Assembly (NCBI GenBank): GCA_051002235.1
Contig: JBPCMN010000023.1
Span: 1,999 to 65,998 of the forward strand
DNA length: 64,000 nt
Direction of reading: 5' to 3'
Origin: Acidimicrobiia bacterium
GTDB taxonomy: Bacteria > Actinomycetota > Acidimicrobiia > IMCC26256 > JACDBD01
This document shows, one piece after another, positions 1-51,674 of this stretch. The notes under the pieces are model-generated. The model made no database searches, was not told the origin of the DNA, and worked only from the letters and a program-made list of their open reading frames with translations. The stretch's first letter is position 1, and every line of letters begins with the position of its first letter. A program made the translations under genes and the position numbers.

Positions 1-494
1 TCGCAGGTCTCGCCGGCCGGGAACGGCTCGATCTCGCCGACCAGGGCCCCGCCCAGGAGCCGGTCCTCGTCGAGGGCGCCCTCGTCGTCGAGCGGGAGGT
101 CGGCGGCCGGGCCCCGGACGATCACAAGCTCGTGGGGCTCCTCGCCGGTGTTCTCGGCCACGAACGCGACGGGACCCGCGGAGGCGGTCGCGGTGCTGGG
201 CACGATCGCCCACTCATTCAGCTCGACGTCGACGGTGATGGCGGCAGTGCTCATGTCGCCGACCGGCCGGCACTCGATCTCGCCGCCCTCGCCCGAGCCT
301 GAACCCGAGCCGGACCCGGAGCCGCTGCCGGACCCGGAGCCGCTGCCGGACCCGGAGCCACTGCCGGACCCGGACCCGGAACCGGATCCGCCGCCCACCT
401 CGCGGACGCCGCCGCCGTCGTCGGCGCCGCATCCGGTGAACGCCGGCATCGCCAGCGCGACCAGGCCGACGGTCAGGACGGTACGAGTTCGCAT
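1..494 (-). CDS. Lipoprotein (partial; 3' end runs off the window) with a (Gly-Ser)16 linker and a cupredoxin-like (EfeO N-terminal / Cupredoxin_1-like) domain
   Basis: Absent from the ORF track because there is no stop in the window. Minus-strand translation from ATG at 492-494: MRTRTVLTVGLVALAMPAFTGC (signal peptide plus lipobox), GADDGGGVREVGG, (GS)16, GEGGEIECRPVGDMSTAAITVDVELNEWAIVPSTATASAGPVAFVAENTGEEPHELVIVRG... The last part resembles single-domain cupredoxins of iron-uptake proteins. Confidence 0.6.
   Translation of the reverse strand, partial: MRTRTVLTVGLVALAMPAFTGCGADDGGGVREVGGGSGSGSGSGSGSGSGSGSGSGSGSGSGSGSGSGEGGEIECRPVGDMSTAAITVDVELNEWAIVPSTATASAGPVAFVAENTGEEPHELVIVRGPAADLPLDDEGALDEDRLLGGALVGEIEPFPAGETC
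294..389 (-). repeat. 96-nt Gly-Ser dipeptide-coding microsatellite, including three tandem 18-nt units
   Basis: Plus-strand units GGACCCGGAGCCGCTGCC at 312-329 and 330-347, and GGACCCGGAGCCACTGCC at 348-365. The whole tract encodes 16 consecutive GS dipeptides on the minus strand. Confidence 0.9.
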
Positions 495-1897
495 GGTGGT
501 GCCTCCCTGCGTTCGGGTTCGGGTTCGAGTTTCGGTTGGACCTGGGTCGATGGAGCCTGCCGTACCGAGCGCAGCCCGGTGAGCGCGAGGAGAAGGAGCG
601 CGCCGTACCAGAGCGCCGAGAGCCCGGCGGTGCCCGCCGGGAGCCGGCCGTCGGGGAGCAGGTGTCGCGCCAGCCGGTAGACCGGGGCGGTGCTCGTCTC
701 GAAGTCGTCGACGAGGGTGAGCCCGGCCAGACCCTCCACCACGAGCCACGCGAACGTGAGCGCGCCGAGCACGGCGCCGGCCGCGAGCCACGGCCGGACC
801 GCTTCGACGCGCCCGGCCCACCAGGCGACCGCGAGCACGAGGCATGGGATCACGACCACCAGCTGGCGCCCGGGCCAGGCCCACTCGTGCATGGACAACG
901 CGACGAACGTCGCGGTCAACCAGCCCGCCGTCAGCGGCGCGGCCAGCGCGCTCCAGCCCCGCGGGCGGCGGCGGACGAGGGCGGCGAACGCCGGCACCGC
1001 GAGCAGGAACGCCGGCTGCCACGCCGCCAGGCCGAAGCTCCGATCTACGAGCAGCCCCGTCAACCGGTGCGCCCGCCCCCCGTAGTCGGGGGCGAAACCG
1101 ACGGCAGTGAACTCACCGTTCACGAAGTGGTCGCCGGCGGAATAGGCGGTCCACCCCCCGTACCACGCCTGGTGGGCGACGAGGTAGACGGCGGCGGCCG
1201 CGCCGAGGCCCACGGCGAAACCGGTGAGGGCGCGCCGGTCCCGGGGCCAGAGCCGGGATGCACCGACGGCGACGAGTGCGGCCGCGATCGGCAGGTACTT
1301 CACCGCCAGCCATGGCAGGCCAACGACGGCCACGCTCAGCAGCACGACGGCGCGCCGGTCGAGCGGGGCGGCGAGCGCGCCGATCGCGACGGTCACCGCC
1401 AGCGCGGCCGGCAGCTCGGGATAGACGTGCGTCCCGTACACCGCGAGCGGCGCCGCCAACGAGTACGTCGCGACCGCCAACACCGCCACCGAAAGCGGCA
1501 CATCGAAGCGGCGTACCGCGACCCAGAGCATCGCCGCCGCCAACGCGCCCGCGGTCACGGCCAGCGCGAGCTTCGCTGCGATCCAGCCCCCGAGGAGCGT
1601 CGGGACCGCCAGGAGCGCGGGGAGCAGCGGGTCGTGGGGGCTCACTCGGCTCCCGTCGGACCGCAGCTCCTCCTGGAGCGGGAGCCCTGACTCGTGGAAG
1701 TCGCGGTGGCGCCCGGCGGCGCGCTCGTCGCGCACGTCGAGGCTGTGGTCCTCACCGAGGCTGAGCGCGGTCAGCAAGTACTGGGGTTCGTCGGCGGTGG
1801 TGCGCTCGCCGTCGGTCGCCCGCACCGCGGTGAGCGGCGCGGTCCACACCACCACGCCCGCACCGAGGAGGAGCATCGCCTTCGTCAGCCGGCTCAT
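473..1897 (-). CDS. Polytopic membrane protein, GT-C-fold glycosyltransferase-like (ArnT/PMT-like)
   Basis: Track ORF 473..2164 trimmed to MSRLTKAMLLLGAG... (ATG 1895-1897, ATGA overlap with the permease stop). It has many hydrophobic helices and an acidic first-loop motif TADEPQYLL like the DE/DD motif of GT-C enzymes. Its 3' end overlaps the lipoprotein start by 22 nt. Confidence 0.5.
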   Translation of the reverse strand: MSRLTKAMLLLGAGVVVWTAPLTAVRATDGERTTADEPQYLLTALSLGEDHSLDVRDERAAGRHRDFHESGLPLQEELRSDGSRVSPHDPLLPALLAVPTLLGGWIAAKLALAVTAGALAAAMLWVAVRRFDVPLSVAVLAVATYSLAAPLAVYGTHVYPELPAALAVTVAIGALAAPLDRRAVVLLSVAVVGLPWLAVKYLPIAAALVAVGASRLWPRDRRALTGFAVGLGAAAAVYLVAHQAWYGGWTAYSAGDHFVNGEFTAVGFAPDYGGRAHRLTGLLVDRSFGLAAWQPAFLLAVPAFAALVRRRPRGWSALAAPLTAGWLTATFVALSMHEWAWPGRQLVVVIPCLVLAVAWWAGRVEAVRPWLAAGAVLGALTFAWLVVEGLAGLTLVDDFETSTAPVYRLARHLLPDGRLPAGTAGLSALWYGALLLLALTGLRSVRQAPSTQVQPKLEPEPERREAPPCELVPS

Positions 1898-3540
1898 GCG
1901 TCGAGACGTTCCAGGCGCCGGATCGTGAGCAGCCAGGTCAGGACGCCCGAGAGGGCGACCAGCGCGAGCGCGCTGAGCCCGGCGCGGGCGAAGTAAGCGC
2001 TCTCGGTCGCGCTCCAGATGCGGGTGGCGAGGGTGTCGAAGCCGGTGGGCGCGAGCAGCAGGGTCGCGGGCAGCTCCTTCATCGTCGACAGCAGCACCAG
2101 CCCGGCGCCGGCGCCCAGGCCCGGCAGCATCAGCGGCAGGTCCACCGTGCGCAGCCGGCGCCACCGACCCGACCCGAGCGAACGGGCGGCGTCACCCAAC
2201 CGGCGGGGCACGCCGCTCACCGCGACCTGGGACGCCCGCATCGCCTGGGCGCCAAAGTGCACCACGTACGCGAACACTAGGAGCGGGAACGTCTGGTAGA
2301 GGCCGCCGACCAGAGGCGCCCGCAGCACCCAGAAGACGACCGCCAGCGCGATGACCAGCCCCGGCAGCGCGAAGCCGGCGACCACGAGCGCGTTGGCCAC
2401 CGCGCCCACCCGGCTCTGGTGCCGGGTCGTCAGGTACGTCACCGGCAGCACGACGGCGACGGCGACGACCGCGGTCACGACGGCGATGCCGCCGGTATTG
2501 ACCAGGGGCTGCCACAGGTCCGACCACTCGACGCCTCGGGCGGCGCGGTCCTCGCCGAGGCCGCGCAGGGTCCACTGCGCCAACACCGCGACCGGGGCCA
2601 CGAGCGCGATGCCCACGACGCCGACGACGAGGGCGAGCGCCGGCGCTTTCCATACCCCGAGCGGCGCCTGGAGCGGTCGCCGCCCCGCCGCCACCGCCTC
2701 GGTGTTGACCCGCCGGCGAGACAGGCCGCGCTCCGACATCACCACCACCAGCGCGACCACGGCCAGCAGGAGCCCGAGCGCGAGCGCGGTGGGCGGGTCG
2801 AACAGCCGAGCCGACTCGATGCGGACGGTCAGGGTGTCGTAGCGCAGCAGCGAGACCGCGCCGAAGTCGCTGATGACGTAGAGGAAGACGAGCAACGCCC
2901 CCGCCGCGATCGCGCCAGTCGCCTGCGGGAGCACGAGCGACCGGAACACCTGCGCCGGCGACCGTCCCAGCGACCGGCCGGTCTCCTCGAGTGACGGCGG
3001 GAGCGCCGAGAGGCGCGCCGCCACCGGCAGGTACACGTACGGGTACGACAGGAGCGTGAGGGTCGCGAACGCGGCCCAGTAGCCCCGGACGGGGGGGAGC
3101 GCGTCGAAGCCGAAGAGCTCGTCGAGCAGGCCACCGCGCGCAAAGGCGGCGATGAGCGCGAGGGCGCCGACGAACGACGGGATAACAAGCGGCAGCGCCA
3201 CCAGCACCCGGAAGAGCCGGCGCAGGGGGAGGTCGGTGCGCATGACCAACCAGGCGAGGGTGGTGCCGAGGAGGGCGCAGGCAACCGCGGTGGTCGCAGC
3301 CAGGAGCAGCGTCCGCGTGAGCGGCCCGAGGGCGGTCTCCGAGCGCAGCACCTCGGGCGCGCCGCCCTCCTGGGCGGTCCGCACGACGAGGTACACGAGC
3401 GGTCCGGCGAAGGCGGCCGCGACCACCAGGCTGACCGCGGCCAGTGAAGCCGGGGCTCGGCTCCGGAAGCGACGGGCGGGCGGAGCGGGAGGAAGCGGCG
3501 CCGGAGTGACGGGGCGGTCGGCGACAGTGGCGGTCGTCAT
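1894..3540 (-). CDS. Iron(III) ABC transporter permease (FbpB-type, duplicated permease domain)
   Basis: 548 aa with about 12 TM segments and two ABC permease-like halves. Operon context is an Fe3+-type binding protein and an ATPase. Confidence 0.8.
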   Translation of the reverse strand: MTTATVADRPVTPAPLPPAPPARRFRSRAPASLAAVSLVVAAAFAGPLVYLVVRTAQEGGAPEVLRSETALGPLTRTLLLAATTAVACALLGTTLAWLVMRTDLPLRRLFRVLVALPLVIPSFVGALALIAAFARGGLLDELFGFDALPPVRGYWAAFATLTLLSYPYVYLPVAARLSALPPSLEETGRSLGRSPAQVFRSLVLPQATGAIAAGALLVFLYVISDFGAVSLLRYDTLTVRIESARLFDPPTALALGLLLAVVALVVVMSERGLSRRRVNTEAVAAGRRPLQAPLGVWKAPALALVVGVVGIALVAPVAVLAQWTLRGLGEDRAARGVEWSDLWQPLVNTGGIAVVTAVVAVAVVLPVTYLTTRHQSRVGAVANALVVAGFALPGLVIALAVVFWVLRAPLVGGLYQTFPLLVFAYVVHFGAQAMRASQVAVSGVPRRLGDAARSLGSGRWRRLRTVDLPLMLPGLGAGAGLVLLSTMKELPATLLLAPTGFDTLATRIWSATESAYFARAGLSALALVALSGVLTWLLTIRRLERLDA

Positions 3541-3547
3541 CGCGGCG

Positions 3548-4570
3548 TCAGCCCTGCTCGAGGCCGCTCTGCTCGATGAGGTCCTTCGTGCGGATCAGCT
3601 GGCCGCCCAGGCTGCTGAGGTCGAGGCTGGGCGACTCGATCTCGGACAGGCTCGGCAGGTCCTCGATCACGGGCTCGATGCCGGCCGCCAGCGGGTACTC
3701 CAGCGTCTCCCGAGCGTAGAACTCCTGCGCCTTGCGAGAGAGGAGGAAGCGCACGAGACGTGCCCCATCCTCCTGGCGGTCGCCGGCGGTGTCGAGCACG
3801 GCCGCCGCGGTCACCAGCACCAGGCTCCCGATATCGCCGTTCGGGAACAGGTAGTTCGCGCTGGGAGCGTCGGGGTCCTCGGCCAGGACTTCTTCGTTGT
3901 AGTAGTGGTTCACGAGCCCGAACGGGATCTCTCCCCGACCGACCGCCTCCACGATGGCGATGTTGTTGGCGTAGGTGGGTGCGCGGTTGGCCTCCATCCC
4001 TTCGAGCCAGGCGAACGTCCGGTCGTCGCCGGCGAGCTCGCGCATAGCGGTGACGAAGTCCTGGAACGACGCGTTCGTCGGCGCGATTGCGACGTCGCCC
4101 TCGTAGCGCGGGTCAGTGAGGTCGAAGACCGACTGCGGAAGATCCGATGGGCTCACCGCATCGGTGTTGTAGACGAGCACCCGCACGCGGCCGGAGATGC
4201 CGACCCAACGACCGTCGCCGGAGCGGAACCGCGGCTCGACCTGGTCGAGCGCCTTGACGGGGAGTTGCTCGAGCCGACCGCCGGCGTCGAGGAATCCGAC
4301 GGCGCCCGGGCTCTGGGAGAGGAAGACGTCGGCCGGGGAGCGGTCGCCCTCCTCGTCGATGAGGAGGGCGAGGTCGGCCGAGTCGCCGTAGCGGACGTCG
4401 ATCCCGATCCCGGTCTCGTCGGAGAAATCCTCGAGCAGCGGGGTGATCAGCTCCTCTTGGCGGCCCGAATAGATGGTGAGGCGGTCACCACCCCCGCTCG
4501 TCGAACAGCTTGCGAGGCCGGCCGTCAGCACAGCGGCGGCGAGCAGCGCGGCAACGCCCCGACGGAGCAT
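3548..4570 (-). CDS. Fe(3+) ABC transporter substrate-binding lipoprotein (FbpA/AfuA-like)
   Basis: Signal peptide plus lipobox LTAGLASCS. The pattern LTIYSGRQEELITPLLEDFSDETGIGIDVRYGDSADL...SPADVFLSQSPG is typical of FbpA-family binding proteins. Confidence 0.8.
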   Translation of the reverse strand: MLRRGVAALLAAAVLTAGLASCSTSGGGDRLTIYSGRQEELITPLLEDFSDETGIGIDVRYGDSADLALLIDEEGDRSPADVFLSQSPGAVGFLDAGGRLEQLPVKALDQVEPRFRSGDGRWVGISGRVRVLVYNTDAVSPSDLPQSVFDLTDPRYEGDVAIAPTNASFQDFVTAMRELAGDDRTFAWLEGMEANRAPTYANNIAIVEAVGRGEIPFGLVNHYYNEEVLAEDPDAPSANYLFPNGDIGSLVLVTAAAVLDTAGDRQEDGARLVRFLLSRKAQEFYARETLEYPLAAGIEPVIEDLPSLSEIESPSLDLSSLGGQLIRTKDLIEQSGLEQG

Positions 4571-4602
4571 GGCCGTGAGCCTGACACGACCCCGGACGCT
4601 TG

Positions 4603-4626
4603 TAAAGTTGACCTAACCTTACCTAT
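4603..4626. promoter_or_regulatory. Candidate DtxR/IdeR iron box upstream of the binding-protein gene
   Basis: TAAAGTTGACCTAACCTTA (4603-4621) matches about 13/19 of the TTAGGTTAGGCTAACCTAA consensus. It shares the CCTTACCT core with the box at 5740-5758. Confidence 0.4.
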
Positions 4627-4668
4627 TGCCTCGCTCGCGGCGGGCCCGGATACCCGGCCCGCGGCCGC

Positions 4669-5733
4669 TCACTCGGACGCCAGGTCAGGTGTCAGCTCGT
4701 TGAGCGTGCCGCTTCCGCGGAACGCGATGACCTCGCCGGTCACCGCCACCGAGACCCGGTCCCCGGGCTCGAACGCCCGGACGGGGCCCATCCGCGAGCG
4801 GACTCGCGCGCCGTCCTCCAACCCGACCTCCACCAGCTGGTCGTGGCCGAAGTAGGTGATGCCGCGCACGACGCCCTGGCCGGCACCGTCGAGGCGCAGG
4901 CTGACCCGCTCGGGGCGGAGCGCGACCGCGACGTCGCCGGAGAGGTCGCCGTTCGTCGTGGGCAACCGGCCCACCGCGGTCGTCACCGCGTCGCCGTCGG
5001 CCCGTCCCGGGAGCAGGTCGGCGTCACCCACGAACGTGGCGACGAAGCGGTCGGTGGGATGCGCGTAGAGCGTGCCGGGCTCGTCGACCTGGAGCACGCG
5101 CCCGGCACGCATCACCGCGATGCGGTCGGCGAGGCTGAGCGCCTCCTCCTGGTCGTGGGTCACGAACACCGCGGTCGCGGCCGCGTCGCGCAGGATGGCC
5201 CGGACCTCGCCTCGCACCCGCACCCGGAGCGCGGCGTCCAGGTTCGAGAACGGCTCGTCCAGCAGGATCAGCGCAGGCTCGGGCGCCAGCGCCCGAGCGA
5301 TCGCCACCCGTTGCTGCTGGCCGCCCGACAGCTCGTGGGGCAGGCGGGCCGCCTCCCCGGTCAGGCCGACGAGGTCGAGCATCTCGGCGACGCGGGCGTC
5401 GCGCGCGTTCCGGTCGCGGACCCCATACCCGACGTTCTGGCCGACGGTCAGGTGCGGAAAGAGGGCGTAGTCCTGGAACACGACGCCGACGCGGCGCCGC
5501 TCGGGGGCGACGAAGCGGTCCGACCCCGCCACCTCCTCGCCGTCGAGCACGATGCGCCCGGCGTCGGGCCGCTCGAACCCGGCGACGAGCCGCAGCGTCG
5601 TCGTCTTCCCGCACCCACTGGGCCCGAGGAGGGCAAGGACCTCGCCCTCGCGGACGTCGAGGTCGACGCGGTCGACGGCTCGCACCGCCCCGAAGTCCTT
5701 GGTGAGCTCGCGCAACTCGACGATCGTGCGCAC
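4669..5733 (-). CDS. ABC transporter ATP-binding protein (FbpC/PotA-like, C-terminal TOBE-like domain)
   Basis: Walker A GPSGCGKTT, signature LSGGQQQRVAIARAL, Walker B LILLDEPFS. GTG start at 5731-5733. Confidence 0.9.
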   Translation of the reverse strand: MRTIVELRELTKDFGAVRAVDRVDLDVREGEVLALLGPSGCGKTTTLRLVAGFERPDAGRIVLDGEEVAGSDRFVAPERRRVGVVFQDYALFPHLTVGQNVGYGVRDRNARDARVAEMLDLVGLTGEAARLPHELSGGQQQRVAIARALAPEPALILLDEPFSNLDAALRVRVRGEVRAILRDAAATAVFVTHDQEEALSLADRIAVMRAGRVLQVDEPGTLYAHPTDRFVATFVGDADLLPGRADGDAVTTAVGRLPTTNGDLSGDVAVALRPERVSLRLDGAGQGVVRGITYFGHDQLVEVGLEDGARVRSRMGPVRAFEPGDRVSVAVTGEVIAFRGSGTLNELTPDLASE

Positions 5734-5739
5734 GAATAC

Positions 5740-5758
5740 TTAGGGTAGCCTTACCTCC
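5740..5758. promoter_or_regulatory. Candidate DtxR/IdeR iron box in the divergent ATPase / dtxR-family promoter region
   Basis: TTAGGGTAGCCTTACCTCC matches 14/19 of the TTAGGTTAGGCTAACCTAA consensus. It fills almost the entire 25-nt gap between the two divergent start codons. Confidence 0.55.
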
Positions 5759-6421
5759 GTGGCGGAGATGCACGACACCACCGAGGAGTACCTCGAGACC
5801 ATCCTCGCCATCGAAGAGGAGGGCATCCCCCCGCTGCGCGCCCGGCTGGTCGAGCGCCTCGGGCTCTCCGCCGCCGCGGTCTCGGAGACCGTGAACCGGC
5901 TGGCCGCCCTGGGGTACACGGAGCTCCGGGACGACCGCACGATCCGCCTGACTGACAAGGGGCGCCAGCTCGCCACCACCGTCGTGCGCCGGCACCGGCT
6001 GGCCGAGCGACTGCTCACCGACGTCATCGGGCTGGAGTGGGAGAAGGTGCACCGCGAGGCGGCCCGCTGGGAGCACGCGATCTCGGCCGACGTGGAGGAG
6101 AAGCTCGTCGAGCTGCTCGGCGACCCCGTGACCTGTCCGCACGGCAATCCGATCCCGGGCTCACGGAGAACGGCCAAAGCCACGCCGACCGTTCAGCTGG
6201 CGGCGGCCGAACCTGGTCGGGTGACGATCGCCCGCATCAGCGAGAAGCTCGAGCTCAACGACGACGGGCTGACGCTGCTCGCCCGCGCCCGCCTCATCCC
6301 GGGTGCGACCGCCACCGTCATCGAGCGGGGTGATGGCGGGGTCAAGGTGAAGACGTCGGCGGGCGAGCACACCGTCCCATCTGACGTCGCCGAGCAGATG
6401 TACGTCGCTACCGGCTCCTAG
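5759..6421 (+). CDS. DtxR/IdeR-family metal-dependent transcriptional repressor with a C-terminal SH3-like/FeoA domain
   Basis: MHDTTEEYLETILAIEEEG...RRHRLAERLL...WEKVHREAARWEHAIS...CPHGNPIPG are classical DtxR motifs. The true start may be ATG at 5768. Confidence 0.9.
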   Translation: MAEMHDTTEEYLETILAIEEEGIPPLRARLVERLGLSAAAVSETVNRLAALGYTELRDDRTIRLTDKGRQLATTVVRRHRLAERLLTDVIGLEWEKVHREAARWEHAISADVEEKLVELLGDPVTCPHGNPIPGSRRTAKATPTVQLAAAEPGRVTIARISEKLELNDDGLTLLARARLIPGATATVIERGDGGVKVKTSAGEHTVPSDVAEQMYVATGS

Positions 6422-6427
6422 CTCTCC

Positions 6428-6934
6428 TCAGCTGTCGTTGGGGAGGCGGCGCGCCCACCGCCTCCAGATCGCGGCGTACTCCTGCTCCAGCCGGTCGAGC
6501 CCGGCCTCGAGGGCGCTCACGTTCTCGTCCTCGGGCTCCTTGCCCCGAGCGCGTTTCAACGCCCACGAGATCGGGATCTGGCGCCGGATCTCCTCGATCT
6601 GCGCGTAGGTGGTCTCGGCCTCCTCAATGGCGGCGTCGTCGCGCACGCCCAGCGCCCGGCGCACCAATGCATAGGCGGCCGGCTCGATCCGATCCGGCCC
6701 GAGCACGCCGCCCATTCGGTCGTCGAGGAGGAACAGCTGGCGGTGGAGGCGGCGCACGGTGCGACCGGCGGAGCGCCGGTCGACCTCGGCGATGTCGGCG
6801 TACTTGCGGACCGCGAGCCGATGGGCGTGGTCCTGGCGGAGCCGGTGGGCCAGCCCTCGGTGGTCGGCGATCGCGTCCTCGTGGTTGTCGAGGAACAGCG
6901 CGACGACCTGATCGAGCCCGGAGGCTCCCGTCAC
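6428..6934 (-). CDS. Hypothetical protein (169 aa), translationally coupled to the sulfur-carrier gene
   Basis: Track ORF 6428..7258 trimmed: its N-terminal part is Arg/Pro-rich and overlaps the sulfur-carrier frame. GTG at 6932-6934 overlaps the carrier stop (GTGA). I recognise no family. Confidence 0.55.
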   Translation of the reverse strand: MTGASGLDQVVALFLDNHEDAIADHRGLAHRLRQDHAHRLAVRKYADIAEVDRRSAGRTVRRLHRQLFLLDDRMGGVLGPDRIEPAAYALVRRALGVRDDAAIEEAETTYAQIEEIRRQIPISWALKRARGKEPEDENVSALEAGLDRLEQEYAAIWRRWARRLPNDS

Positions 6935-7206
6935 CCGCCCGCCACCGCGGGGACGATGCTGACGGTCTGGCCGTCGGTGACCGCGGTGTCGAGACCCTGG
7001 AGGAACCGGATGTCCTCGTCGGCGACGAAAACATTCACGAACCGCCGCAGCTCTCCGCTGTCGTCGTGGAGGCGCTCGGCGAAGCCGGGATGGCGCTCCT
7101 CGAGCGCCCCGAGGATCTCGGCCACGGTCTTGCCCTCGACCTGGATCTCGGACGCGCCGCCGGCGAGCTCGCGCAGCTGGGTTGGTATCCGCACCGTGAC
7201 AGCCAC
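6931..7206 (-). CDS. ThiS/MoaD/CysO-family sulfur-carrier protein (beta-grasp, C-terminal Gly-Gly)
   Basis: C-terminal 92 aa of track ORF 6931..7890: VAVTVRIPTQLRELAGGASEIQVEGKTVAEILGALEERHPGFAERL...FVNVFVADEDIRFLQGLDTAVTDGQTVSIVPAVAGG, followed by the stop. The GTG start lies 5 nt after the ThrC-like stop. Confidence 0.8.
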   Translation of the reverse strand: MAVTVRIPTQLRELAGGASEIQVEGKTVAEILGALEERHPGFAERLHDDSGELRRFVNVFVADEDIRFLQGLDTAVTDGQTVSIVPAVAGG

Positions 7207-7211
7207 TGTTG

Positions 7212-8450
7212 CTACTCCTCGTCGATGTGATCTGGGTCGAACGCCTCGTGGAAGGCATCGATGGTGGGACGGATCGTCGCGGTCGGTTCCGCCTCGACCG
7301 CGTCGAGCGTCTTGAGTCCCAAGCCGGTGATGTAGAGGACGACCCGCTCGTCGGGCGTCACGACACCCTCGTCGGCGAGGCGTTTGAGCGAGGCGACGGT
7401 GACGCCGCCGGCGGTCTCGGCGAAGATGCCCTCGGTGCGGGCGAGCAGCCGGATCCCCTCGACGACCTCGCCGTCGCTGACCGCGGCGAGGCCGCCTTCG
7501 GTCTGGCGGACCGCATCGAGGGCAAAGTAGCCGTCGGCGGGGTTTCCGATCGCCAGCGACTTGGCGATCGTGTCCGGCTTGACCGGGCGGATCGTGTCGG
7601 ACCCCTCGCGCCAGGCGGTGGCGACCGGCGAACATCCGAGTGCCTGCGCGCCCGAGACCCGCACGTTCGGGGCGTGGTCGAGCAGGCCGACCTGGTGCAG
7701 CTCGTCGAACCCCTTGCGGATCTTCGTGAGCAACGAGCCGCTCGCGACAGGAACCACGACGTGGTCGGGCGTCTCCCACCCGAGCTGCTCGGCGGTCTCG
7801 TACGCGAGCGTCTTCGACCCCTCGGCGTAGAACGGCCGCACGTTGACGTTCACGAACGCCCACCGATACGTGCCCGCGAGCTCGGCGCACAGCCGGTTGA
7901 CGTCGTCATAGTTCCCCTCGATGGCGACGACATTCCCGCCGTACACCGCGGTCGTGACGACTTTGGCCCGCTCCAGGTTCGACGGAATGAACACGAAGCT
8001 CCGCAGCCCCGCCCGGGCGGCGTGAGCCGCGACGGAGTTGGCGAGGTTCCCAGTCGACGCGCACGCCGCCGTCTTGAACCCGAACTCGAGCGCCTTCGAC
8101 AGCGCGACCGACGCGACCCGATCCTTGAACGAGTTGGTGGGGTTGAGCGTGTCGTTCTTCACCCACACCTCTCCCAGCCCGAGAGCAGCAGCGAGGCGGT
8201 CGGCCCGGACGAGGGGCGTGAAGCCCGCGCCCAGGTCGACGGCGTGGCCCCGGTCGACCGGCAGGAGGTCGGCGTAGCGCCAGATGCTGGCGGGACCGGC
8301 CGCGATTTGCTCGCGGCTGACCGCGGCGGCGACCGCGGCGTAGTCGTACGTGACCTCGAGCGGGCCGAAGCACCACTCGCACGTGTACACCGGGGCAATC
8401 TCGTACTCGCGCCCGCATTCCCGGCACCGAAGTCCTTGGACGTGCGCCAT
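7212..8450 (-). CDS. Threonine-synthase-like PLP enzyme with an N-terminal 4-Cys zinc ribbon
   Basis: PLP-lysine motif TNSFKDRVAS and N-terminal CRECGREYEIAPVYTCEWC. I place the start at ATG 8448-8450 (MAHVQGL...), which has the SD GGAGGAA 2-8 nt upstream, rather than the track start at 8474. Confidence 0.85.
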   Translation of the reverse strand: MAHVQGLRCRECGREYEIAPVYTCEWCFGPLEVTYDYAAVAAAVSREQIAAGPASIWRYADLLPVDRGHAVDLGAGFTPLVRADRLAAALGLGEVWVKNDTLNPTNSFKDRVASVALSKALEFGFKTAACASTGNLANSVAAHAARAGLRSFVFIPSNLERAKVVTTAVYGGNVVAIEGNYDDVNRLCAELAGTYRWAFVNVNVRPFYAEGSKTLAYETAEQLGWETPDHVVVPVASGSLLTKIRKGFDELHQVGLLDHAPNVRVSGAQALGCSPVATAWREGSDTIRPVKPDTIAKSLAIGNPADGYFALDAVRQTEGGLAAVSDGEVVEGIRLLARTEGIFAETAGGVTVASLKRLADEGVVTPDERVVLYITGLGLKTLDAVEAEPTATIRPTIDAFHEAFDPDHIDEE

Positions 8451-8535
8451 GTTCCTCCTCTGTACCCGAGCCATCCGGGCCCGGGCTCCTCGACGCGCTC
8501 TCGAGCGCCTCGAGCGGAGGAACCGCTCCGAAGCT

Positions 8536-8638
8536 GCTCATCGTTCAGGCATTGGCACCTGGTCTCGCCTCTGGCGGAGGCGGTGGCTGGTTGCCGCGGC
8601 GTCGTCGGGCCTGTCCCTCGGCCGCTCTTGATGAGCGC
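8536..8638 (-). promoter_or_regulatory. SAM-I (S-box) riboswitch aptamer
   Basis: Minus-strand RNA: GCUCAUCAAGAGCGGCCGAGGGACAGGCCCGACGACGCCGCGGCAACCAGCCACCGCCUCCGCCAGAGGCGAGACCAGGUGCCAAUGCCUGAACGAUGAGC. P1 is GCUCAUC/GAUGAGC. The conserved cores AUCAAGAG, GAGGGA, GGCCCGA.GA, GGCAACC and GGUGCCAAU are all present in canonical order. Confidence 0.85.
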
Positions 8639-8703
8639 GTACCGGGGACAAGATACCACCGGGAGCGCGTTTCGGCCGCTCGAACCGTGCATAGGCTCGC
8701 GGC

Positions 8704-9627
8704 GTGCGTTCGTTCCGGGACAAGGAAAGGGCGGGGCTGCTGGCCCGGGCGAAGGCCCGCGAGGGCCTCACCGTTTCGGTGTGCATCCCGGCGCGGGACG
8801 AGGAGGCGACCCTCGGCGAGATCGTCACCACCATCCGCCGCGAGCTCGTGGAGGCCGTGCCGCTCGTCGACGAGGTCGTTGTGCTCGACGACGGCTCGCT
8901 CGACGCGACGGCGCGGGTCGCCGCCCGCGCCGGCGCACGCGTGTGGGCGGTCGACCAGGTGCCCGACGGGCTGCCCGCCGGTTCCGGGAAGGGCAACGCG
9001 CTCTGGAAGTCGCTGTTCGTCGCCGAGGGCGCCATCATCTGTTTCCTCGACGCCGACGTGCGGAACTTCGGGTCGCACTTCGTCTCGAGGCTCGTCGAGC
9101 CCCTGGTGGCGCGACCCGCGGTCGGCATGGTGAAGAGCTACTACCGCCGTCCGCTCTACGGCGAGCCCACCGGTGGCGGGCGCGTCACCGAGTTGATGGC
9201 GCGGCCGCTGCTCTCCCGGCTGTTCCCGGAGCTGGCCCACTTCGTGCAACCGCTCTCCGGTGAGTACGCGGCGCGGCGGGAGGTGCTGGAAGCGGTCCCG
9301 TTCGTGCAGGGATGGGGCGTGGAGGTCGGACTGCTCATCGACGTGGCCGAGCGCTTCGGGAGCGACGCGATCGTCCAGGCCGACCTGGGTGCGCGCGAGC
9401 ACCGCAACCGCCCGCTCGACGATCTCGGCCTGCAAGCTCTCGCGATCCTGGTCACCGGCCTGCGTCGGGCCGGCCTCGACCATGGCCAATCGGATGGCGC
9501 GGCCGAGCTCGTCCGCTTCGGCGCTGCGCTCCAGCCCGAGCGCGCCGCGGTCGAGGTGCGCGAGCGACCGCCGATGCTCACGGTGCCGGCGTACGTCGCC
9601 AAGTTCGGCCGCGAGCTCTCCGCCTAG
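8704..9627 (+). CDS. gpgS: Glucosyl-3-phosphoglycerate synthase (GT81)
   Basis: VSVCIPARDEEATLGEIV, VVVLDDGSLDAT, GKGNALWKSL and FLDADVRNF match the GpgS pattern of actinobacteria. Confidence 0.75.
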   Translation: MRSFRDKERAGLLARAKAREGLTVSVCIPARDEEATLGEIVTTIRRELVEAVPLVDEVVVLDDGSLDATARVAARAGARVWAVDQVPDGLPAGSGKGNALWKSLFVAEGAIICFLDADVRNFGSHFVSRLVEPLVARPAVGMVKSYYRRPLYGEPTGGGRVTELMARPLLSRLFPELAHFVQPLSGEYAARREVLEAVPFVQGWGVEVGLLIDVAERFGSDAIVQADLGAREHRNRPLDDLGLQALAILVTGLRRAGLDHGQSDGAAELVRFGAALQPERAAVEVRERPPMLTVPAYVAKFGRELSA

Positions 9628-13316: not shown

Positions 13317-13389
13317 GGTCGCGCTCGCTTCGCTCGCCGCTCCCGCGCAACCCTGACTGTCCGGGGGCCGGGGAACCCGGCCCCCTCGT
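13317..13389 (+). repeat. Intergenic repeat family 1, copy A (73 nt, ends in a 10-bp GC hairpin)
   Basis: GGTCGCGCTCGCTTCGCTCGCCGCTCCCGCGCAACCCTG...GGGGGCCGGGgaaCCCGGCCCCCTCGT. It is about 88% identical to the reverse complement of 34799-34871. Confidence 0.85.
13363..13385. terminator. GC-rich hairpin between convergent otsA and otsB (part of repeat copy A)
   Basis: GGGGGCCGGG / CCCGGCCCCC, 10-bp perfect stem with a 3-nt loop. There is no U-tract on either strand. Confidence 0.5.
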
Positions 13390-13405
13390 GGGCGGCCGGC
13401 GGGTC

Positions 13406-14185
13406 CTATCCCACCTCCGCGGCCAGCGCCTCGAGCAGAGCGGCCAGCGCTTCGGGACCGTCGACCACGATGTCGGATCGCGCCAGAAGCTCGGGGGGCG
13501 ATTCGTCCGACGCCACCGCGATGCGGACCGCGTGTGTGAGCCGTCCCGCGTTCACCACCCGGTCGAGGGCGTCGAAGGCGGGGAGGTCGCCCCGATCGTC
13601 ACCGGCGTAGCCGGCGGCGAAGAAGCCGGGCGCGAGCAGCGACTCGACCGCGGTCCCCTTGTCGACCGGAACCGGCGGCCGCAGCTCGCGGGCCATGCGG
13701 GTCGCATAGGTCACCAGGCCGTGGCGACGCGCCAGATCCTCGAGAAAAGCTGCCGCCTCGGCGTCACGCTCGGGCGCGGTCCGCCAGTGCACGGTGACCG
13801 CGACCCCCGCCTTCCGCTCGACGAGCAACCCGGGGAGCTCGCGCTCGGCCTCGTCGGCGGCGGCCGCCACCGCGTCGACGTACGGGGCCACGCGCTCGTC
13901 GACCACGGTCCGGCCGTCGACCCGGCGCTCGAGGCCGTACTGCCCGACGAGTTCAACCCCGTCGAGCGCGAGCGCGTCGGCGAGCACCTCGACCGGGCGT
14001 CCGCTCACGACCGCCACCAGGCCGACGCGCCCGACCAGCGCGCCGAGCGCGGCGCGCGCTTCCGGCAGCACCGCCGCGGCCGCCGGGTCGTCGACGATGC
14101 GCGAGAGGGAACCGTCGAAGTCGAGCAGGACGGCCGCCTGCTCGGGACGTTCGGCGAGGGGACAGAGCGCGGGGTCGAGTGGCAC
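13406..14185 (-). CDS. otsB: Trehalose-phosphatase-like HAD-IIB hydrolase (OtsB-like)
   Basis: Motif I LLDFDGSLS, overall OtsB-like length, and trehalose gene context. Confidence 0.7.
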   Translation of the reverse strand: MPLDPALCPLAERPEQAAVLLDFDGSLSRIVDDPAAAAVLPEARAALGALVGRVGLVAVVSGRPVEVLADALALDGVELVGQYGLERRVDGRTVVDERVAPYVDAVAAAADEAERELPGLLVERKAGVAVTVHWRTAPERDAEAAAFLEDLARRHGLVTYATRMARELRPPVPVDKGTAVESLLAPGFFAAGYAGDDRGDLPAFDALDRVVNAGRLTHAVRIAVASDESPPELLARSDIVVDGPEALAALLEALAAEVG

Positions 14186-14218
14186 CGGTGCGCGAGCGAT
14201 CGCGCTGCGTCGAGCCGT

Positions 14219-14746
14219 CTACGCCGTGCCGAGGAGGACGAGACAGTCGGCGTTCTCGGCTTCCGCGGGAGGCTCGTCGGGGAACGGCTCGACCGTTGCA
14301 CCCTCGCCCACTGCGAGCGTGAGCGCGGCCGCCTCGTTGTCGAAGCCCTCCCGGCACTGCACCGCCAGGCCCACGCGCGGGAGGGTGTTGCTGGCCGGCA
14401 ACGTGTTGTACCCGGCGGTGCGGAGCTGGTTCGCCTTGTTCTGCGCCGCGCCCGCCGCCTGGCCGGCGTTGAGTACGAGGACCCGGACCTCCGAGGGGGG
14501 GCGGCCGGCCGGCGTCGAGGCCGTGGTCTCCCCGGGTGCCGACGTCGCGGGGCCCCCTCCGCCGCCACCACCGTTGGCGGGGCCGGACGTGCCGTCATCG
14601 ACGATCTGGAGGAGCACGATGCCGACGATCACCGCCAGACCGATGAGCCCCGCGCCGCGTGCGGCGGAGAACACGACTGAGCGGCCGACATCGCGGCGGG
14701 CGACGGAAACCATGGGCATCGAACCTACTGCGGCCGCGCTGCTCAT
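14219..14746 (-). CDS. LytR_C domain-containing membrane-anchored protein
   Basis: N-terminal TM helix, Gly/Pro-rich linker, and C-terminal VRVLVLNAGQAAGAAQNKANQLRTAGYN typical of LytR_C. ATGA overlap with the upstream DUF3263 gene. Confidence 0.7.
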   Translation of the reverse strand: MSSAAAVGSMPMVSVARRDVGRSVVFSAARGAGLIGLAVIVGIVLLQIVDDGTSGPANGGGGGGGPATSAPGETTASTPAGRPPSEVRVLVLNAGQAAGAAQNKANQLRTAGYNTLPASNTLPRVGLAVQCREGFDNEAAALTLAVGEGATVEPFPDEPPAEAENADCLVLLGTA

Positions 14747-14988: not shown

Positions 14989-15039
14989 TGATCGTCGATC
15001 CTGGCCGCGGGAGGGACCAATAGCAAGCATTTCGCCCTG

Positions 15040-15112
15040 AGCCGGGTGTCGGGGTCGAACCGACGACCTCTTCTTTACAAGAGAAGCGCTCTGCCAACTG
15101 AGCTAACCCGGC
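15040..15112 (-). tRNA. tRNA-Thr (anticodon UGU)
   Basis: GCCGGGTTAGCTCAGTTGGCAGAGCGCTTCTCTTGTAAAGAAGAGGTCGTCGGTTCGACCCCGACACCCGGCT folds as a cloverleaf with anticodon loop CTTGTAA. CCA is not encoded. Confidence 0.9.
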
Positions 15113-23867: not shown

Positions 23868-24629
23868 CTACTCAGTTTTCTGCTCGAACCGGCCCGGGCC
23901 CCGCCTCCGGCGGGACTGGCGGCGGCCGAGCTCGCGGCCACGCAGGTAGACGACGAGCGCGAGGCCGGCGAAAAGCAGTGCGCCGATCACGAGCAGCTGC
24001 CGGCTGGGGTCGAAGCGGCTCGAGGACGTCGCGATCTCGACCTTCTCGCCCGGCTTCGGGGTGAACGTCCGCCTCGCGCCGGGCAACCCCACCTCGACGC
24101 GCAGCCGGAACGACTCCCGGACCTGGTCGAGCAGCCGCTGGTCGAGCGCGGTCAGGTCGACCTGTTCCGCGGTGAGCGCGGCGACGAGCTCGGGATCGGT
24201 GATCACACCGGTCGCCAGCGCCGACAGATCGGCGACCCCCTTCAGCCGGTACTCGTCGAACACCAGACCCTCATCGCGCGTCAGCGACACGTTGCGCAGC
24301 GGACCGTGCTGCCCCGTCAGCTCGGTAATCACACCCGCAAGATCAGAAGCGCCGGCGAACTCCTTGCTGATGCGGAGGCGGGCGCTGCCGTCGTCGCGTC
24401 GCCTCCACGCGCTGACGTCCCAACCGGCGGCTTCGAGGTCACCCAGCCGCACCCGGTCCTCGAGGGTGGCGCCACCCGCCTCGGCCTCTATCACTGCGTC
24501 AGCGTCGAGGGCGACGCGGACCGTGACCGTGCCGCTGCCGTCCTCGCGCACGTCGATCGACACCGTCGTGTCGACCTTGCACCCGCCGAGAGCGAGGCAG
24601 CACGCGAGAACGACCAGGAGGCGGCGCAT
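23868..24629 (-). CDS. LppM/DUF3153-like lipoprotein with a C-terminal TM anchor
   Basis: Lipobox LALGGC, then KVDTTVSIDVREDGSGTVTVRV, and a C-terminal hydrophobic helix LLVIGALLFAGLALVVYL followed by an Arg-rich tail. Confidence 0.5.
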   Translation of the reverse strand: MRRLLVVLACCLALGGCKVDTTVSIDVREDGSGTVTVRVALDADAVIEAEAGGATLEDRVRLGDLEAAGWDVSAWRRRDDGSARLRISKEFAGASDLAGVITELTGQHGPLRNVSLTRDEGLVFDEYRLKGVADLSALATGVITDPELVAALTAEQVDLTALDQRLLDQVRESFRLRVEVGLPGARRTFTPKPGEKVEIATSSSRFDPSRQLLVIGALLFAGLALVVYLRGRELGRRQSRRRRGPGRFEQKTE

Positions 24630-24676: not shown

Positions 24677-26035
24677 ATGGTTCGTACCGAGCAGGGCCGG
24701 GTCGGTCCGCGGTATGAAGTGCCCGTGAAGGACGAGGAAGACGCCAAGCTCGACGAGATCGTCGCGACCGCCGGCGACATGGGCGTCGAGATCGACGCCG
24801 ACGAGGCCCGCAAGTGGGTGCTGGCGGTCGCCGCCGGGGGCGACACCGGGACGATCGCGGTCGACGCCTCTGCCGGGATCTTCGCCGACCGGGTCACCAT
24901 GCTCGACTTCGATCCCGACGACCTCGACCACATCCGCGGGCTCGTCCCCCACGGCCGGGTCGAGACCCACCCGGCGGTGGAGTCCGCCATCGCCATCGCC
25001 GGCAGCTCGGCCCAGGGCCGGGTGCAGCTCTTCCCCGGCGACGTCGACTTCTTCGAAAGGGTGCACGTTCGGGCGAAGGACGAAGCCGAGGCGCACCAGG
25101 TCCTACGGGACGTCCTGCGAGAGACGGCACTGCGGGCGCTCGGCGAGGCCGACATCATGCTGCTGTACCTCGAGGTCGGCGTCTACCGCGAGACGGTCCG
25201 CGTCGACGGCGAGATGCGGGATGCGGGCGACAACCTCTCGTGGACCTCGGAAGCGCTCGTCGCCGGCGAGATCGCGGCCGAGTCCGCCGACGGCCGACCC
25301 GTGACGGTTCGGTGGGACGACACCACCGTCGGCGGTGGATGGGTCTACCTCGGTTGGATCGCGGCCGACCGGGAGCGGGGGCGGATCGCCCTGATGAGCA
25401 ACATGGTGGACGCCACCTGGGAGGACCCGACCGGCGCCATCCACGCGCTCGACGGCGCGGTCGATCCCCTGTCGCAGGAGGTCTACCTCGAGCTCGACGC
25501 CCTGCCGCTGGTGGCCAAGCTCGACCGCGCGGTCGCGCCCGACGCCCGCGCCACCTACGCCGCCGCCATGCGCGACCAGGTTTCCCGCTACCTGACCGAG
25601 CCCAGCTTCGGCAAGGTCGCCAAGCGCCTTTACAACCTGTTCCGGGTGACCGACGAGCTCGAGGCGGCCGCCTACGTGCGCGAGCTGTTCGACGAGTCGC
25701 CCGCCCGCCTGTACCAGGTGTCGGGGCTACTCGACGCGGCCGATGCCGCGCTCGACGAGTCGTCGGGCATCGACCGCGACACGGTGCTCCGCCAGCTCGA
25801 TGTGGTGGCGGCGGCGATCAAGGACGCGACCGAGGGCGACGAGGAGGACGCGCTGCTCGCGTCGCTGGCTCGGCTGCGCGAGGCCGCCTTGCAGGAGGGC
25901 CGCGAGGGGACGTCGTGGGCCGACGTGCTCACCGAGGTCCGCAAGGGCTGCGCCGCCGAGGTGAACGACTTCTTCCGGTCGCGCCTGCTCGGCCACGTGA
26001 CCGTGCGCGGCTACGTCGAGTCCCTCGGGAAGTAG
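24677..26035 (+). CDS. Hypothetical protein with a minimal Pol-beta-type nucleotidyltransferase signature
   Basis: Normal acidic/aliphatic composition, unlike the overlapping Arg-rich frames. The motif IAGSSAQGRVQLFPGDVDFFERV fits hG[GS]-x(9-13)-DhDh. A candidate third acidic residue lies in EADIMLLYLEV. Confidence 0.5.
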   Translation: MVRTEQGRVGPRYEVPVKDEEDAKLDEIVATAGDMGVEIDADEARKWVLAVAAGGDTGTIAVDASAGIFADRVTMLDFDPDDLDHIRGLVPHGRVETHPAVESAIAIAGSSAQGRVQLFPGDVDFFERVHVRAKDEAEAHQVLRDVLRETALRALGEADIMLLYLEVGVYRETVRVDGEMRDAGDNLSWTSEALVAGEIAAESADGRPVTVRWDDTTVGGGWVYLGWIAADRERGRIALMSNMVDATWEDPTGAIHALDGAVDPLSQEVYLELDALPLVAKLDRAVAPDARATYAAAMRDQVSRYLTEPSFGKVAKRLYNLFRVTDELEAAAYVRELFDESPARLYQVSGLLDAADAALDESSGIDRDTVLRQLDVVAAAIKDATEGDEEDALLASLARLREAALQEGREGTSWADVLTEVRKGCAAEVNDFFRSRLLGHVTVRGYVESLGK

Positions 26036-30848: not shown

Positions 30849-31550
30849 TCAGGCGCGGGCTAGGAGCCAGCGCACCGAGTCGCGGACCCGCTCGGCGAGC
30901 TCGGCCGCGACCAGGGCATCGCCGGGGACGGCGTCGGTCTCGGTCTCGACCATCTCGCCCACGATGACGCGCCACGCCCGCAGTGGGAGGCCCACCGGAC
31001 CGCCCGGCAGCACCACGATCGGGATCACCGGGAAGCCGAGGATCGCCGCCAGCAACGCGCGCGGTGGCTCGCCCGCACCCGGTCGCAGCCAGGTCGGAGC
31101 GAGGGGCGCGGCCGCCAGGTGGCCGGCGCGGAGCAGGGCGGCGACGTCGTCGGGGCGTCCGCCCAACGCGCCGAGCTTGCGCGCCACCGGCCCGACCACG
31201 GGCAGGTCGGGCGCGCCGATGATGCGGACCCGCCGGCCCGTCACCTCGCGCACCGCGATCGCGAGCGCGGCCGGCTCGAGCAGTCCGAGGCCGCGGTTGG
31301 CGACGAGCAGAGCGCCGCCGACTTCGGGAAGGCGCTCGCCGTGCTCGACCCGCACGCGCACGGCGCCGCGAACCGGCGCCGCCAACAGATCCATGAGCTG
31401 GGGATCGCCGCCGAACGGGTCGATCGGGTAGCGCCCGCCGAGACGGCGCCGCGCGACCGCGAGGAGCGACTCGGCCCCGTGCACCCGGTCGGCGTCGATG
31501 CCGTGATCGCCGACGGCGGTGTCGGCGACCGCCACCGGGACGCCGGTCAC
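30849..31550 (-). CDS. PlsC-like acyltransferase-fold protein with a degenerate catalytic motif
   Basis: Start set at GTG 31548-31550 (GTGA overlap with the epimerase stop). Family-like GGALLVANRGLGLLEP occupies the position of the canonical ...ANH....D motif, with His replaced by Arg. Confidence 0.5.
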   Translation of the reverse strand: MTGVPVAVADTAVGDHGIDADRVHGAESLLAVARRRLGGRYPIDPFGGDPQLMDLLAAPVRGAVRVRVEHGERLPEVGGALLVANRGLGLLEPAALAIAVREVTGRRVRIIGAPDLPVVGPVARKLGALGGRPDDVAALLRAGHLAAAPLAPTWLRPGAGEPPRALLAAILGFPVIPIVVLPGGPVGLPLRAWRVIVGEMVETETDAVPGDALVAAELAERVRDSVRWLLARA

Positions 31551-32512: not shown

Positions 32513-32522
32513 CACAAAGACG

Positions 32523-51419: not shown

Positions 51420-51601
51420 CTGCCCCCGTCCGCCCTCGGCAACAGTTCTCCGTGGCGATCCAACCCGGCGCGGGTGGCGCCGTACTCGTTCGCGCCGAGC
51501 GTATTCGGCGTGGGAGCGGTAGCCGCGGACCCATGGAGACGAGAAAGCGGCCCGGCTCCGGGTGCAGAGCCCGACGCCGTCGCCTCTCGGCGAGGTGGAG
51601 G

Positions 51602-51674
51602 AGCCGGGGAGGGGACTCGAACCCCTGGCCTGCTCATTACGAGTGAGCTGCTCTGCCGACTGAGCTACCCCGGC
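51602..51674 (-). tRNA. tRNA-Thr (anticodon CGU)
   Basis: GCCGGGGTAGCTCAGTCGGCAGAGCAGCTCACTCGTAATGAGCAGGCCAGGGGTTCGAGTCCCCTCCCCGGCT folds as a cloverleaf with anticodon loop CTCGTAA. Confidence 0.9.

Follow-up and report, generated by a model that had tools for sequence, protein, structure and literature searches.

An Acidimicrobiia locus that probably represents the MetM/MetO methionine branch under translational SAM-I riboswitch control

Introduction

This study concerns an operon on the minus strand of a 64,000-nucleotide stretch of DNA from an uncultured bacterium of the class Acidimicrobiia (assembly GCA_051002235.1, contig JBPCMN010000023.1, positions 1,999 to 65,998; this whole stretch is called the window). 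In this operon, a predicted SAM-I (S-box) riboswitch for S-adenosylmethionine (SAM) precedes genes for a homologue of threonine synthase (ThrC), for a ThiS-like sulfur carrier and for a third protein, named orf3 here. The closest described counterpart is the MetM/MetO methionine branch of Streptomyces albulus. GapMind 2026 (10.1101/2024.10.14.618325), citing Hasebe et al. 2024 (Appl Environ Microbiol 90:e01247-24), presents MetM as a homologue of ThrC to which the name threonine synthase is often wrongly given, counts the carrier MetO, MoeZ and Mec among the members of the MetM system, and states that the characterised enzyme uses O-phosphohomoserine. A SAM riboswitch is reported upstream of S. 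albulus metM, together with homologues in cyanobacteria (PMC12172450), and the MetM/MetO assignment is repeated in a 2026 bioRxiv preprint. The system is already known: it was published in 2024, riboswitch control included, and the Streptomyces proposal of a ThrC-like enzyme with a carrier, which the original prediction for this window mentioned, does exist in this form (GapMind 2026, PMC12172450).

The window shares with S. albulus a ThrC homologue, a ThiS-like carrier next in order, a SAM riboswitch ahead of both, the same predicted chemistry and the common misannotation as threonine synthase. It differs in its uncultured Acidimicrobiia host, in an extra clade-specific gene of 168 amino acids (aa) that is coupled to metO, in a carrier that ends directly in Gly-Gly, and in MoeZ and Mec not being linked within 64 kb. 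In the CysO-CysM-Mec system of Mycobacterium tuberculosis, a thiocarboxylated beta-grasp carrier (3dwg_C) likewise serves a fold-type II pyridoxal phosphate (PLP) enzyme that acts on an O-phospho amino acid, and the E1 enzyme is again unlinked. Unlike the window enzyme, however, this enzyme is of the CysK/M type and converts O-phosphoserine to cysteine; there is no SAM riboswitch, and a JAMM gene lies in the cluster. The HcyS-MetY system of Wolinella succinogenes also draws the sulfur of homocysteine from a ThiS-like protein thiocarboxylate and needs an E1 and, in Wolinella, a protease, but the sulfur there goes to a fold-type I O-acetylhomoserine sulfhydrylase, whose substrate is an acylated homoserine, and not to a ThrC paralogue acting on O-phosphohomoserine.

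Our analysis indicates that this Acidimicrobiia locus probably encodes the MetM/MetO methionine branch, which SAM would switch off at translation initiation.

Results

Layout of the operon

The aptamer and the three genes lie on the minus strand at the following window positions.

8535-8637, minus strand: SAM-I (S-box) aptamer (Rfam RF00162)
7212-8450, minus strand: metM-like gene for a 412-aa ThrC-fold PLP enzyme with an N-terminal Cys4 ribbon (PALP E 8.6e-74)
6931-7206, minus strand: metO-like gene for a 91-aa ThiS/MoaD/CysO-type beta-grasp carrier that ends in Gly-Gly before the stop codon (Pfam ThiS E 8e-17)
6428-6934, minus strand: orf3, a 168-aa all-helical protein, whose GTG start overlaps the metO TGA by 4 nt (GTGA)

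The three-gene layout first proposed, with an enzyme, a gap of 5 nt between the metM stop and the metO start, a carrier and a GTGA-overlapping open reading frame (ORF), stands with coordinates of 8450-7212, 7206-6931 and 6934-6428. The lengths of 92 and 169 aa originally given for the two smaller proteins had to be reduced to 91 and 168 aa, as the stop codon had been counted. An upstream ATG at 8474 (420-aa ORF) was ruled out as the metM start: it lies inside a hairpin of the leader's platform, and the conserved N-terminus and the Shine-Dalgarno (SD) sequence favour 8450.

The enzyme and its relation to canonical threonine synthases

The predicted threonine-synthase fold with a PLP-lysine motif and a four-cysteine ribbon is borne out by the Pfam PALP match, an SFKDR motif and an N-terminal CxxC...CxxC. 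Records of identical or near-identical enzymes, from Acidimicrobiia metagenome-assembled genomes (MAGs), carry the name threonine synthase. With the MetM-like protein of Microcystis the window enzyme shares 59% identity (457 bits), and with the canonical ThrC from that species 39% (176 bits). The Microcystis MetM-like protein is encoded beside a metO-like gene, and its identity to S. albulus MetM is given as 51.6% (PMC12172450).

With canonical ThrC (PDB 2zsj, 1uim, 2d1f) the window enzyme shares the fold, the SFKDR motif and presumably the substrate O-phosphohomoserine. It is, however, only 41% identical to the Aquifex ThrC (2zsj) and 39% to that of M. tuberculosis (2d1f), and these two chains lack the Cys4 ribbon, because they align only from residue 53 on. 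The ribbon is present in all 83 homologues of the window enzyme. The same 83 homologues have STGNLA (STGNLANS in the window) instead of the ThrC motif STGNT(S/A), and most of them carry VN(V/I)NxRP(Y/F)Y(A/S)EGSK (VNVNVRPFY in the window) versus VN-SVNPxRxEGQK in ThrC. A Tyr of the window enzyme aligns to the Arg of VN-SVNPxR, a phosphate-binding residue in the T. thermophilus ThrC structure; this Arg is replaced in all 83 homologues. A comparison with bona fide ThrC, which the original prediction had proposed as a check, thus finds both active-site loops of ThrC replaced in the window enzyme. Because the identity gap, the STGNLA and VNxNxRP loops and the Cys4 ribbon separate the two groups, the carrier-linked MetM group and canonical ThrC are, judged by sequence, distinct paralogues, and the window enzyme belongs to the carrier-linked group.

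The carrier and its conserved linkage to the enzyme

The small protein, correctly described before as a beta-grasp protein ending in Gly-Gly, matches Pfam ThiS (62 bits) and ends in PAVAGG directly before the stop codon. Its nearest solved chains are 4n6e_B, a member of the ThiS/MoaD family, and the M. tuberculosis CysO chain 3dwg_C, which is deposited as 9.5 kDa culture filtrate antigen cfp10A (E ~1e-22).

Relatives were collected by scanning one genome per GTDB species, and the best 80 loci (enzyme identity 56-97%; individual loci carry L numbers below) come from Acidimicrobiia, other Actinomycetota, Thermoleophilia, Nitrospirota, Planctomycetia, an Aquifex MAG and archaea; no Streptomyces is among them. 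In 78 of the 80, a carrier homologue lies 3' of the enzyme gene. About 55 of the 80 carriers, including that of the window, end exactly in Gly-Gly, which means that MetO should need no C-terminal trimming, and the others have 1-12 extra residues and would therefore need a JAB protease. In a plasmid collection, only Nonomuraea was found; the cultured Nonomuraea gerenzanensis has the order SAM-I, metM-like gene (55.6%) and metO-like gene (91 aa, ending in AVAGG). One locus from a Mycobacteriales MAG (L075, 5830-7194) has a SAM-I aptamer (67.5 bits) before a MetM-like gene (63% identical) and no metO homologue in the 4.8 kb available downstream.

Neighbouring ORFs were clustered across the loci and then assigned with Pfam. 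Directly 3' of metO, L042 and L044 encode a rhodanese-ThiF protein of 391-393 aa, and, with a SAM-I aptamer upstream there, this E1 is part of a SAM-controlled operon. In both E1 proteins (L042 2780-3961, L044 2004-3179) the rhodanese domain is N-terminal and the ThiF domain C-terminal, the reverse of the order in mycobacterial MoeZ. The Nitrospira loci have the gene order CysK/M-like PALP, ThiF, metM, metO, ThiF, Prok-JAB; this six-gene cluster is conserved (L056 4129-9167, others in L051-L072), includes a PALP protein of 309 aa and has no SAM riboswitch, and it suggests that a single carrier system serves the synthesis of cysteine as well as that of homocysteine. Two archaeal loci have a ThiF gene no more than 1.3 kb away.

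The SAM-I aptamer

Against RF00162, whose use the original prediction had recommended, the aptamer scores 66.1 bits (gathering score 44.4, E 3.5e-13), aligning to the model over its full length (1-108), and it is the sole riboswitch in an Rfam scan of the whole window. Read directly from the minus strand, P1 consists of GCUCAUC (8636-8630) and GAUGAGC (8542-8536), and the other motifs named at the outset are likewise present. P1, P2 with its GA-rich internal loop, P3 and the core motifs align to the model. The description as a textbook S-box aptamer is nevertheless too strong, since the aptamer has lost nearly all of the P4 stem, 17 positions of the model being absent here and in relatives. 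Such P4-less SAM-I aptamers occur throughout the clade (the window and the leaders of L004-L050, with the same 17 positions deleted) and still score 65-79 bits; in them, only a few bases separate GGUGCCAAUGCC(U/C)G from the P1 3' strand that comes after it. We predict from its sequence that the window aptamer binds SAM and controls expression.

SAM-I elements in the relatives were sought by sequence pattern and then by Rfam, with those of L075 and L082 found by Rfam only. All Actinomycetota loci have a SAM-I core 5' of the enzyme gene, and no Nitrospira, Planctomycetia or archaeal locus has one; Rfam confirmed it in L042 (78.0 bits), L044 (78.6 bits), L075, L082 and Nonomuraea gerenzanensis.

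Sequestration of the SD sequence

From the 5' flank of the aptamer to the start codon, the leader contains the following elements, some of them seen in its minimum free energy (MFE) fold.

8633-8640, minus strand: 5' flank and P1 5' strand ACGCGCUC, complementary to platform GAGCGCGU (8500-8493) and its proposed partner in the SAM-free state
8512-8528, minus strand: hairpin H1 (GAGCGG, loop UUCCU, CCGCUC), with a conserved stem, holding the anti-SD GUUCCUCC (8523-8516)
8489-8514, minus strand: platform hairpin H2 (CUCGA-G-GCGCU-CGAG-AGCGC-G-UCGAG) of the MFE fold, whose 5' end shares 3 nt with the H1 3' strand
8464-8486, minus strand: variable GC-rich hairpin of the MFE fold between the platform core and the ribosome-binding site (RBS), differing in sequence and length among the closest relatives
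8448-8458, minus strand: SD strand GGAGGAAC (8458-8451) and ATG (8450-8448), read from the sequence, the SD strand being paired with 8523-8516 in the MFE fold

The anti-SD UUCCUCC (8522-8516) and the SD GGAGGAA (8458-8452), which lies ahead of the ATG at 8450, had been recognised as exactly complementary over 7 nt. Their pairing in fact extends to 8 bp (GUUCCUCC at 8523-8516 with GGAGGAAC at 8458-8451) and is formed in the MFE fold of 8435-8645 (-103.3 kcal/mol, z -3.2), in which the aptamer is also formed and the anti-SD/SD helix encloses two hairpins. No U-tailed (intrinsic) terminator, in agreement with the first reading of the sequence, and no sigma-70-like promoter was detected in 6200-9000.

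The anti-SD occupies the 5' strand and the loop of H1, the stem of which is kept among relatives, with a loop of 4 to ~29 nt and a compensatory GGCGG/CCGCC in L042 and L044. H2 is paired in 96% of cells across 15 aligned leaders and carries loop insertions of up to ~30 nt in L012 and L013. Pairing of anti-SD and SD also appears in the MFE folds of close relatives, and the paired sequences vary in a compensatory manner (UUCCUCC/GGAGGAA in the window, UUCCCC/GGGGAA in L004, CCUUCC/GGAAGG in L042 and L044). Moreover, the anti-SD segment after P1 pairs more strongly with its own RBS than with that of other leaders (mean -18.15 versus -15.5 kcal/mol), with 0 of 20000 permutations as good, a figure that can be trusted only so far, as the leader sequences are related. 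Because the pairing forms in relatives' folds, is maintained by compensatory pairs and prefers the leader's own RBS, translational OFF control by SD sequestration, as originally suggested, is likely.

Two leader architectures and a possible strand exchange

The leaders fall into two main classes, to which four Thermoleophilia leaders with a platform unrelated to that of the window have to be added. In the 19 short leaders (L014, L022, L030-L047 apart from L042 and L044, and L050), the P1 3' strand leads straight into the SD (GAUGAGGAGG), which is thereby embedded in the P1 3' side; the start codon follows ~25 nt after GGUGCCAA in 16 of them and, with the start aligned to the window protein, ~45 nt after it in L030-L032. 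The long leaders (73-161 nt; L001-L029 apart from L014 and L022, together with L042, L044 and L048), among them that of the window, have a conserved platform 3' of P1, in which GAGCGG, a variable loop and CCGCUC (H1) are followed by CUCGAgGCGCUC, a variable loop and GAGCGCgUCGAG (H2). According to Barrick and Breaker 2007 (PMC2258182), actinobacterial SAM-I OFF switches hide the RBS, which commonly lies in the P1 3' side. The 19 short leaders are organised exactly as described there, whereas the window has a separate platform of ~85 nt, a dedicated anti-SD, a conserved double hairpin and an aptamer without P4.

Every long-platform leader (31 Acidimicrobiia-group loci as well as L042 and L044) contains ACGCGCUC, with GUUC for GCUC in L011, and it occurs in 0 of the 19 short and 0 of the 4 Thermoleophilia leaders. 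L014 and L022 have short leaders without ACGCGCUC, though by MetM identity they stand between members of the long class. In the window, ACGCGCUC (8640-8633) is perfectly complementary to the H2 3' strand GAGCGCGU (8500-8493), and this helix is 99% pairable across the 15 leaders. When the pairing is forced, the fold lies 4.0 kcal/mol above the MFE in the window and 2.6-9.6 kcal/mol above it in relatives; the P1 3' strand and the bases that follow it then pair with CCGCU.CGAGGC.GCUC, the resulting long hairpin buries the anti-SD, and the SD is mostly unpaired. The two proposed leader states are pairable in 97.6% and 89.8% of cells. Halfway along the anti-sequestor stem, alignment columns 123-125 and 143-145 do not pair with each other in 10-11 of the 15 leaders, so that an internal loop lies there in most.

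P1 and H2 appear able to swap strands, because ACGCGCUC complements the H2 3' strand and the forced fold costs little; such a strand exchange is plausible but unproven. We know of no earlier description, for SAM-I, of a four-strand exchange with a platform hairpin that mimics P1.

The third gene

Homologues of orf3 form 18 clusters (69-100% identity, 163-168 aa, no frameshifts), all of them from metagenomes or MAGs. A profile search of 1.84 billion representatives added one more distant member (P0139) and two marginal matches, and yielded two true representatives only. One of the marginal matches, P0140 (439 aa, E 3.8e-4), contains two tandem orf3-like segments (YA...V.RD.A..EV.R....L.L.DER), which hints at a wider, very divergent family of helical domains. 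Wherever the context of orf3 can be read, metM, metO and orf3 (with the 4-nt overlap) are followed by a convergent ideR-like gene.

The ratio of nonsynonymous to synonymous substitution rates (dN/dS) is 0.35-0.46 for orf3, compared with 0.05 for metM and 0.08-0.12 for metO, which corresponds to purifying but relaxed selection on orf3. Its GC content at third codon positions (GC3) is 0.93, and across the codon positions GC follows the pattern of a coding gene. These values and the absence of frameshifts in the 18 homologues rule out a spurious high-GC ORF. An AlphaFold (AF2) model shows seven helices (pLDDT 82.5, pTM 0.76) without a Foldseek match in the PDB (best E 1.2), and no significant sequence match was obtained in Pfam, NCBIfam or PDB. 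A SlyA-like helix-turn-helix (HTH) match with E 0.16 was discarded as evidence.

As orf3 is absent from all 80 species loci, the trio that had been proposed as a pathway unit is not supported. Of the species representatives, L004 is the closest (97% identity in MetM); in place of orf3 it has, between metO and the ideR-like gene, a stand-alone response-regulator receiver gene (3447-4028, plus strand, Response_reg E 7e-24) that is unrelated to orf3. On these comparisons, we regard orf3 as a real gene of a narrow Acidimicrobiia clade that is not a core pathway component.

Genomic surroundings

The operon is flanked by a divergent gene for a family-2 glycosyltransferase (8704-9627, plus strand) and by a convergent gene for a DtxR/IdeR-type repressor (5759-6421, plus strand), beyond which follows an iron-type ABC transporter. 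The stop codons of the repressor gene and orf3 are 6 nt apart. The importer genes beside the repressor (block 473-6421) encode an ATPase (4669-5733), a binding protein (3548-4570) and a permease (1894-3540), and in relatives the iron block additionally includes ferritin and Fer2_BFD genes.

In a Pfam survey, the other window genes were housekeeping genes (trehalose-type glycosyltransferases, cysS, ispDF, carD, disA, radA, clpC, coaX, nadBC, panC, fol genes, ftsH, tilS, topA and an H+-PPase), with no sulfur or methionine genes among them, and tblastn found no second PALP or ThrC paralogue in the 64 kb. Six sizeable ORFs with coding-like GC3 had no Pfam match at E 1e-4 or 1e-5 (13388-14680, 24677-26035 and 32373-34016 on the plus strand; 23868-24629, 30849-31595 and 62802-63926 on the minus strand). 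Two tRNA-Thr genes (15039-15112 and 51600-51674, both minus strand, anticodons TGT and CGT) share the window with the threonine-synthase-like gene, which is probably coincidental.

Discussion

The idea that this locus makes homocysteine from O-phosphohomoserine and a protein thiocarboxylate under SAM control, to which the bare sequence had already led, matches the published route, the MetM-type identity of the enzyme, its pairing with a carrier and the conserved SAM-I element. We predict that the window MetM is a carrier-thiocarboxylate-dependent homocysteine synthase, a function that rests on orthology and synteny. MetM, as a threonine-synthase paralogue, would take O-phospho-L-homoserine, and the C-terminal thiocarboxylate of MetO would replace water as the (sulfur) nucleophile to give homocysteine, as expected from orthology to the S. 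albulus system. MetO would be adenylated and sulfurated by a MoeZ-like rhodanese-ThiF E1 encoded elsewhere, as the relatives with such a gene after metO suggest, while orf3 would be co-translated with metO in its own clade only, as an accessory. With SAM bound, P1 would close, the platform would fold H2, and the anti-SD GUUCCUCC would pair with GGAGGAAC beside the ATG and block the ribosome. Without SAM, the P1 5' strand ACGCGCUC would pair with the platform GAGCGCGU, and the P1 3' strand GAGC with the following bases would pair with GCUC...CCGCU, forming a long hairpin in which the anti-SD is buried, so that the SD becomes free.

Several observations weigh against this interpretation. No E1 or JAMM/JAB gene was found in the 64-kb window, either by tblastn with the E1 and JAB proteins of related loci (best E 0.035) or in the Pfam survey. 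Carrier activation is therefore presumably encoded elsewhere in the genome, and moeZ is likewise unlinked in M. tuberculosis. The original prediction had correctly noticed this lack of nearby genes, but it had called activation unexplained, whereas relatives have an adjacent rhodanese-ThiF E1 or a JAB gene, which are simply unlinked here. As to the leader, the nearest-neighbour model favours the OFF fold even without ligand, and covariation counts across the 15 leaders are uninformative for both states, as the helices are almost invariant. The enzyme passes the NCBIfam threonine-synthase models (TIGR00260 288.5 versus 167.1, NF006050 307.7 versus 303), which accounts for its public annotation. 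Its MetM orthology was triangulated through the Microcystis sequences (PMC12172450 supplement) and synteny, and not through S. albulus MetM itself. Finally, the Microcystis MetM-like enzyme is reported to have produced threonine from O-phosphohomoserine in vitro, to have deaminated threonine, and not to have raised methionine in vivo (PMC12172450). This ambiguous in vitro behaviour, seen without the carrier in the only other homologue studied outside Streptomyces, makes a MetM-type function beyond that genus less certain.

A more elaborate version would make orf3 an unrecognised MetM/MetO accessory, either a regulator or a carrier-binding adaptor, and the long leader a four-strand exchange between P1 and the platform hairpin that mimics it. 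The weak HTH-like stretch of orf3 and the receiver-domain gene in the corresponding slot of the sibling locus are what make a regulator or adaptor conceivable. We consider this combination rather doubtful.

Among the readings that assign the pair another function, a CysM/CysO-like role, with cysteine or another thiol formed from O-phosphoserine and the carrier thiocarboxylate, seems quite improbable. The carrier is indeed most similar to CysO chains, and some cysteine and sulfur-assimilation genes of Firmicutes are under S-box control. Yet the enzyme is of the ThrC and not of the CysK/CysM type, it reaches only 82 with the NCBIfam cysteate synthase model (cut-off 325), and the separate CysK/M-like PALP beside the pair in Nitrospira suggests distinct roles. 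The characterised homologue, moreover, is stated to use O-phosphohomoserine (10.1101/2024.10.14.618325).

Slightly less credit still is due to a genuine threonine synthase, perhaps with a deaminase side activity, next to a carrier that serves molybdopterin, thiamin or another process. The passed thrC models, the names of the public records and the ThrC and deaminase activities reported in vitro for the Microcystis protein (PMC12172450) would fit such an enzyme. A threonine gene would be an anomalous target for a SAM riboswitch, however, and yet the element is conserved across Actinomycetota; the window protein also resembles MetM-type paralogues far more closely than it does canonical ThrC, and the ThrC loops are replaced throughout its homologues. 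The carrier for its part is CysO-like, falls far below the NCBIfam moaD cut-off (19.3 versus 66) and is linked to the enzyme in nearly all loci, with no moa or thi genes nearby. That the small protein is mainly a SAMP-like, ubiquitin-like modifier and not a sulfur donor for the enzyme is the most improbable reading of all: it just passes the NCBIfam SAMP1 equivalog (65.4 versus 60), and E1 and JAB genes accompany the carrier in other phyla, but in bacteria it is tightly and translationally closely linked to a PLP enzyme under SAM control, SAMPs act as sulfur carriers too, and its best solved relatives are the sulfur carrier CysO and the ThiS/MoaD chain 4n6e_B.

The MetM/MetO assignment makes the window a well-supported example, in an uncultured actinobacterial class, of the recently described homocysteine route from O-phosphohomoserine and a thiocarboxylate. 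The locus opens no new question by itself; its residual interest lies in the orphan gene coupled to metO and in the conserved design of the platform. Several bacterial phyla and also archaea have conserved the pairing of enzyme and carrier, in some of them with E1 and JAB genes alongside. The signatures STGNLA and VNxNxRP[YF]Y, together with an adjacent carrier that ends in Gly-Gly, can correct the widespread annotation as threonine synthase, and this correction matters for the metabolic reconstruction of MAGs that seemingly lack metA, metX and metY.

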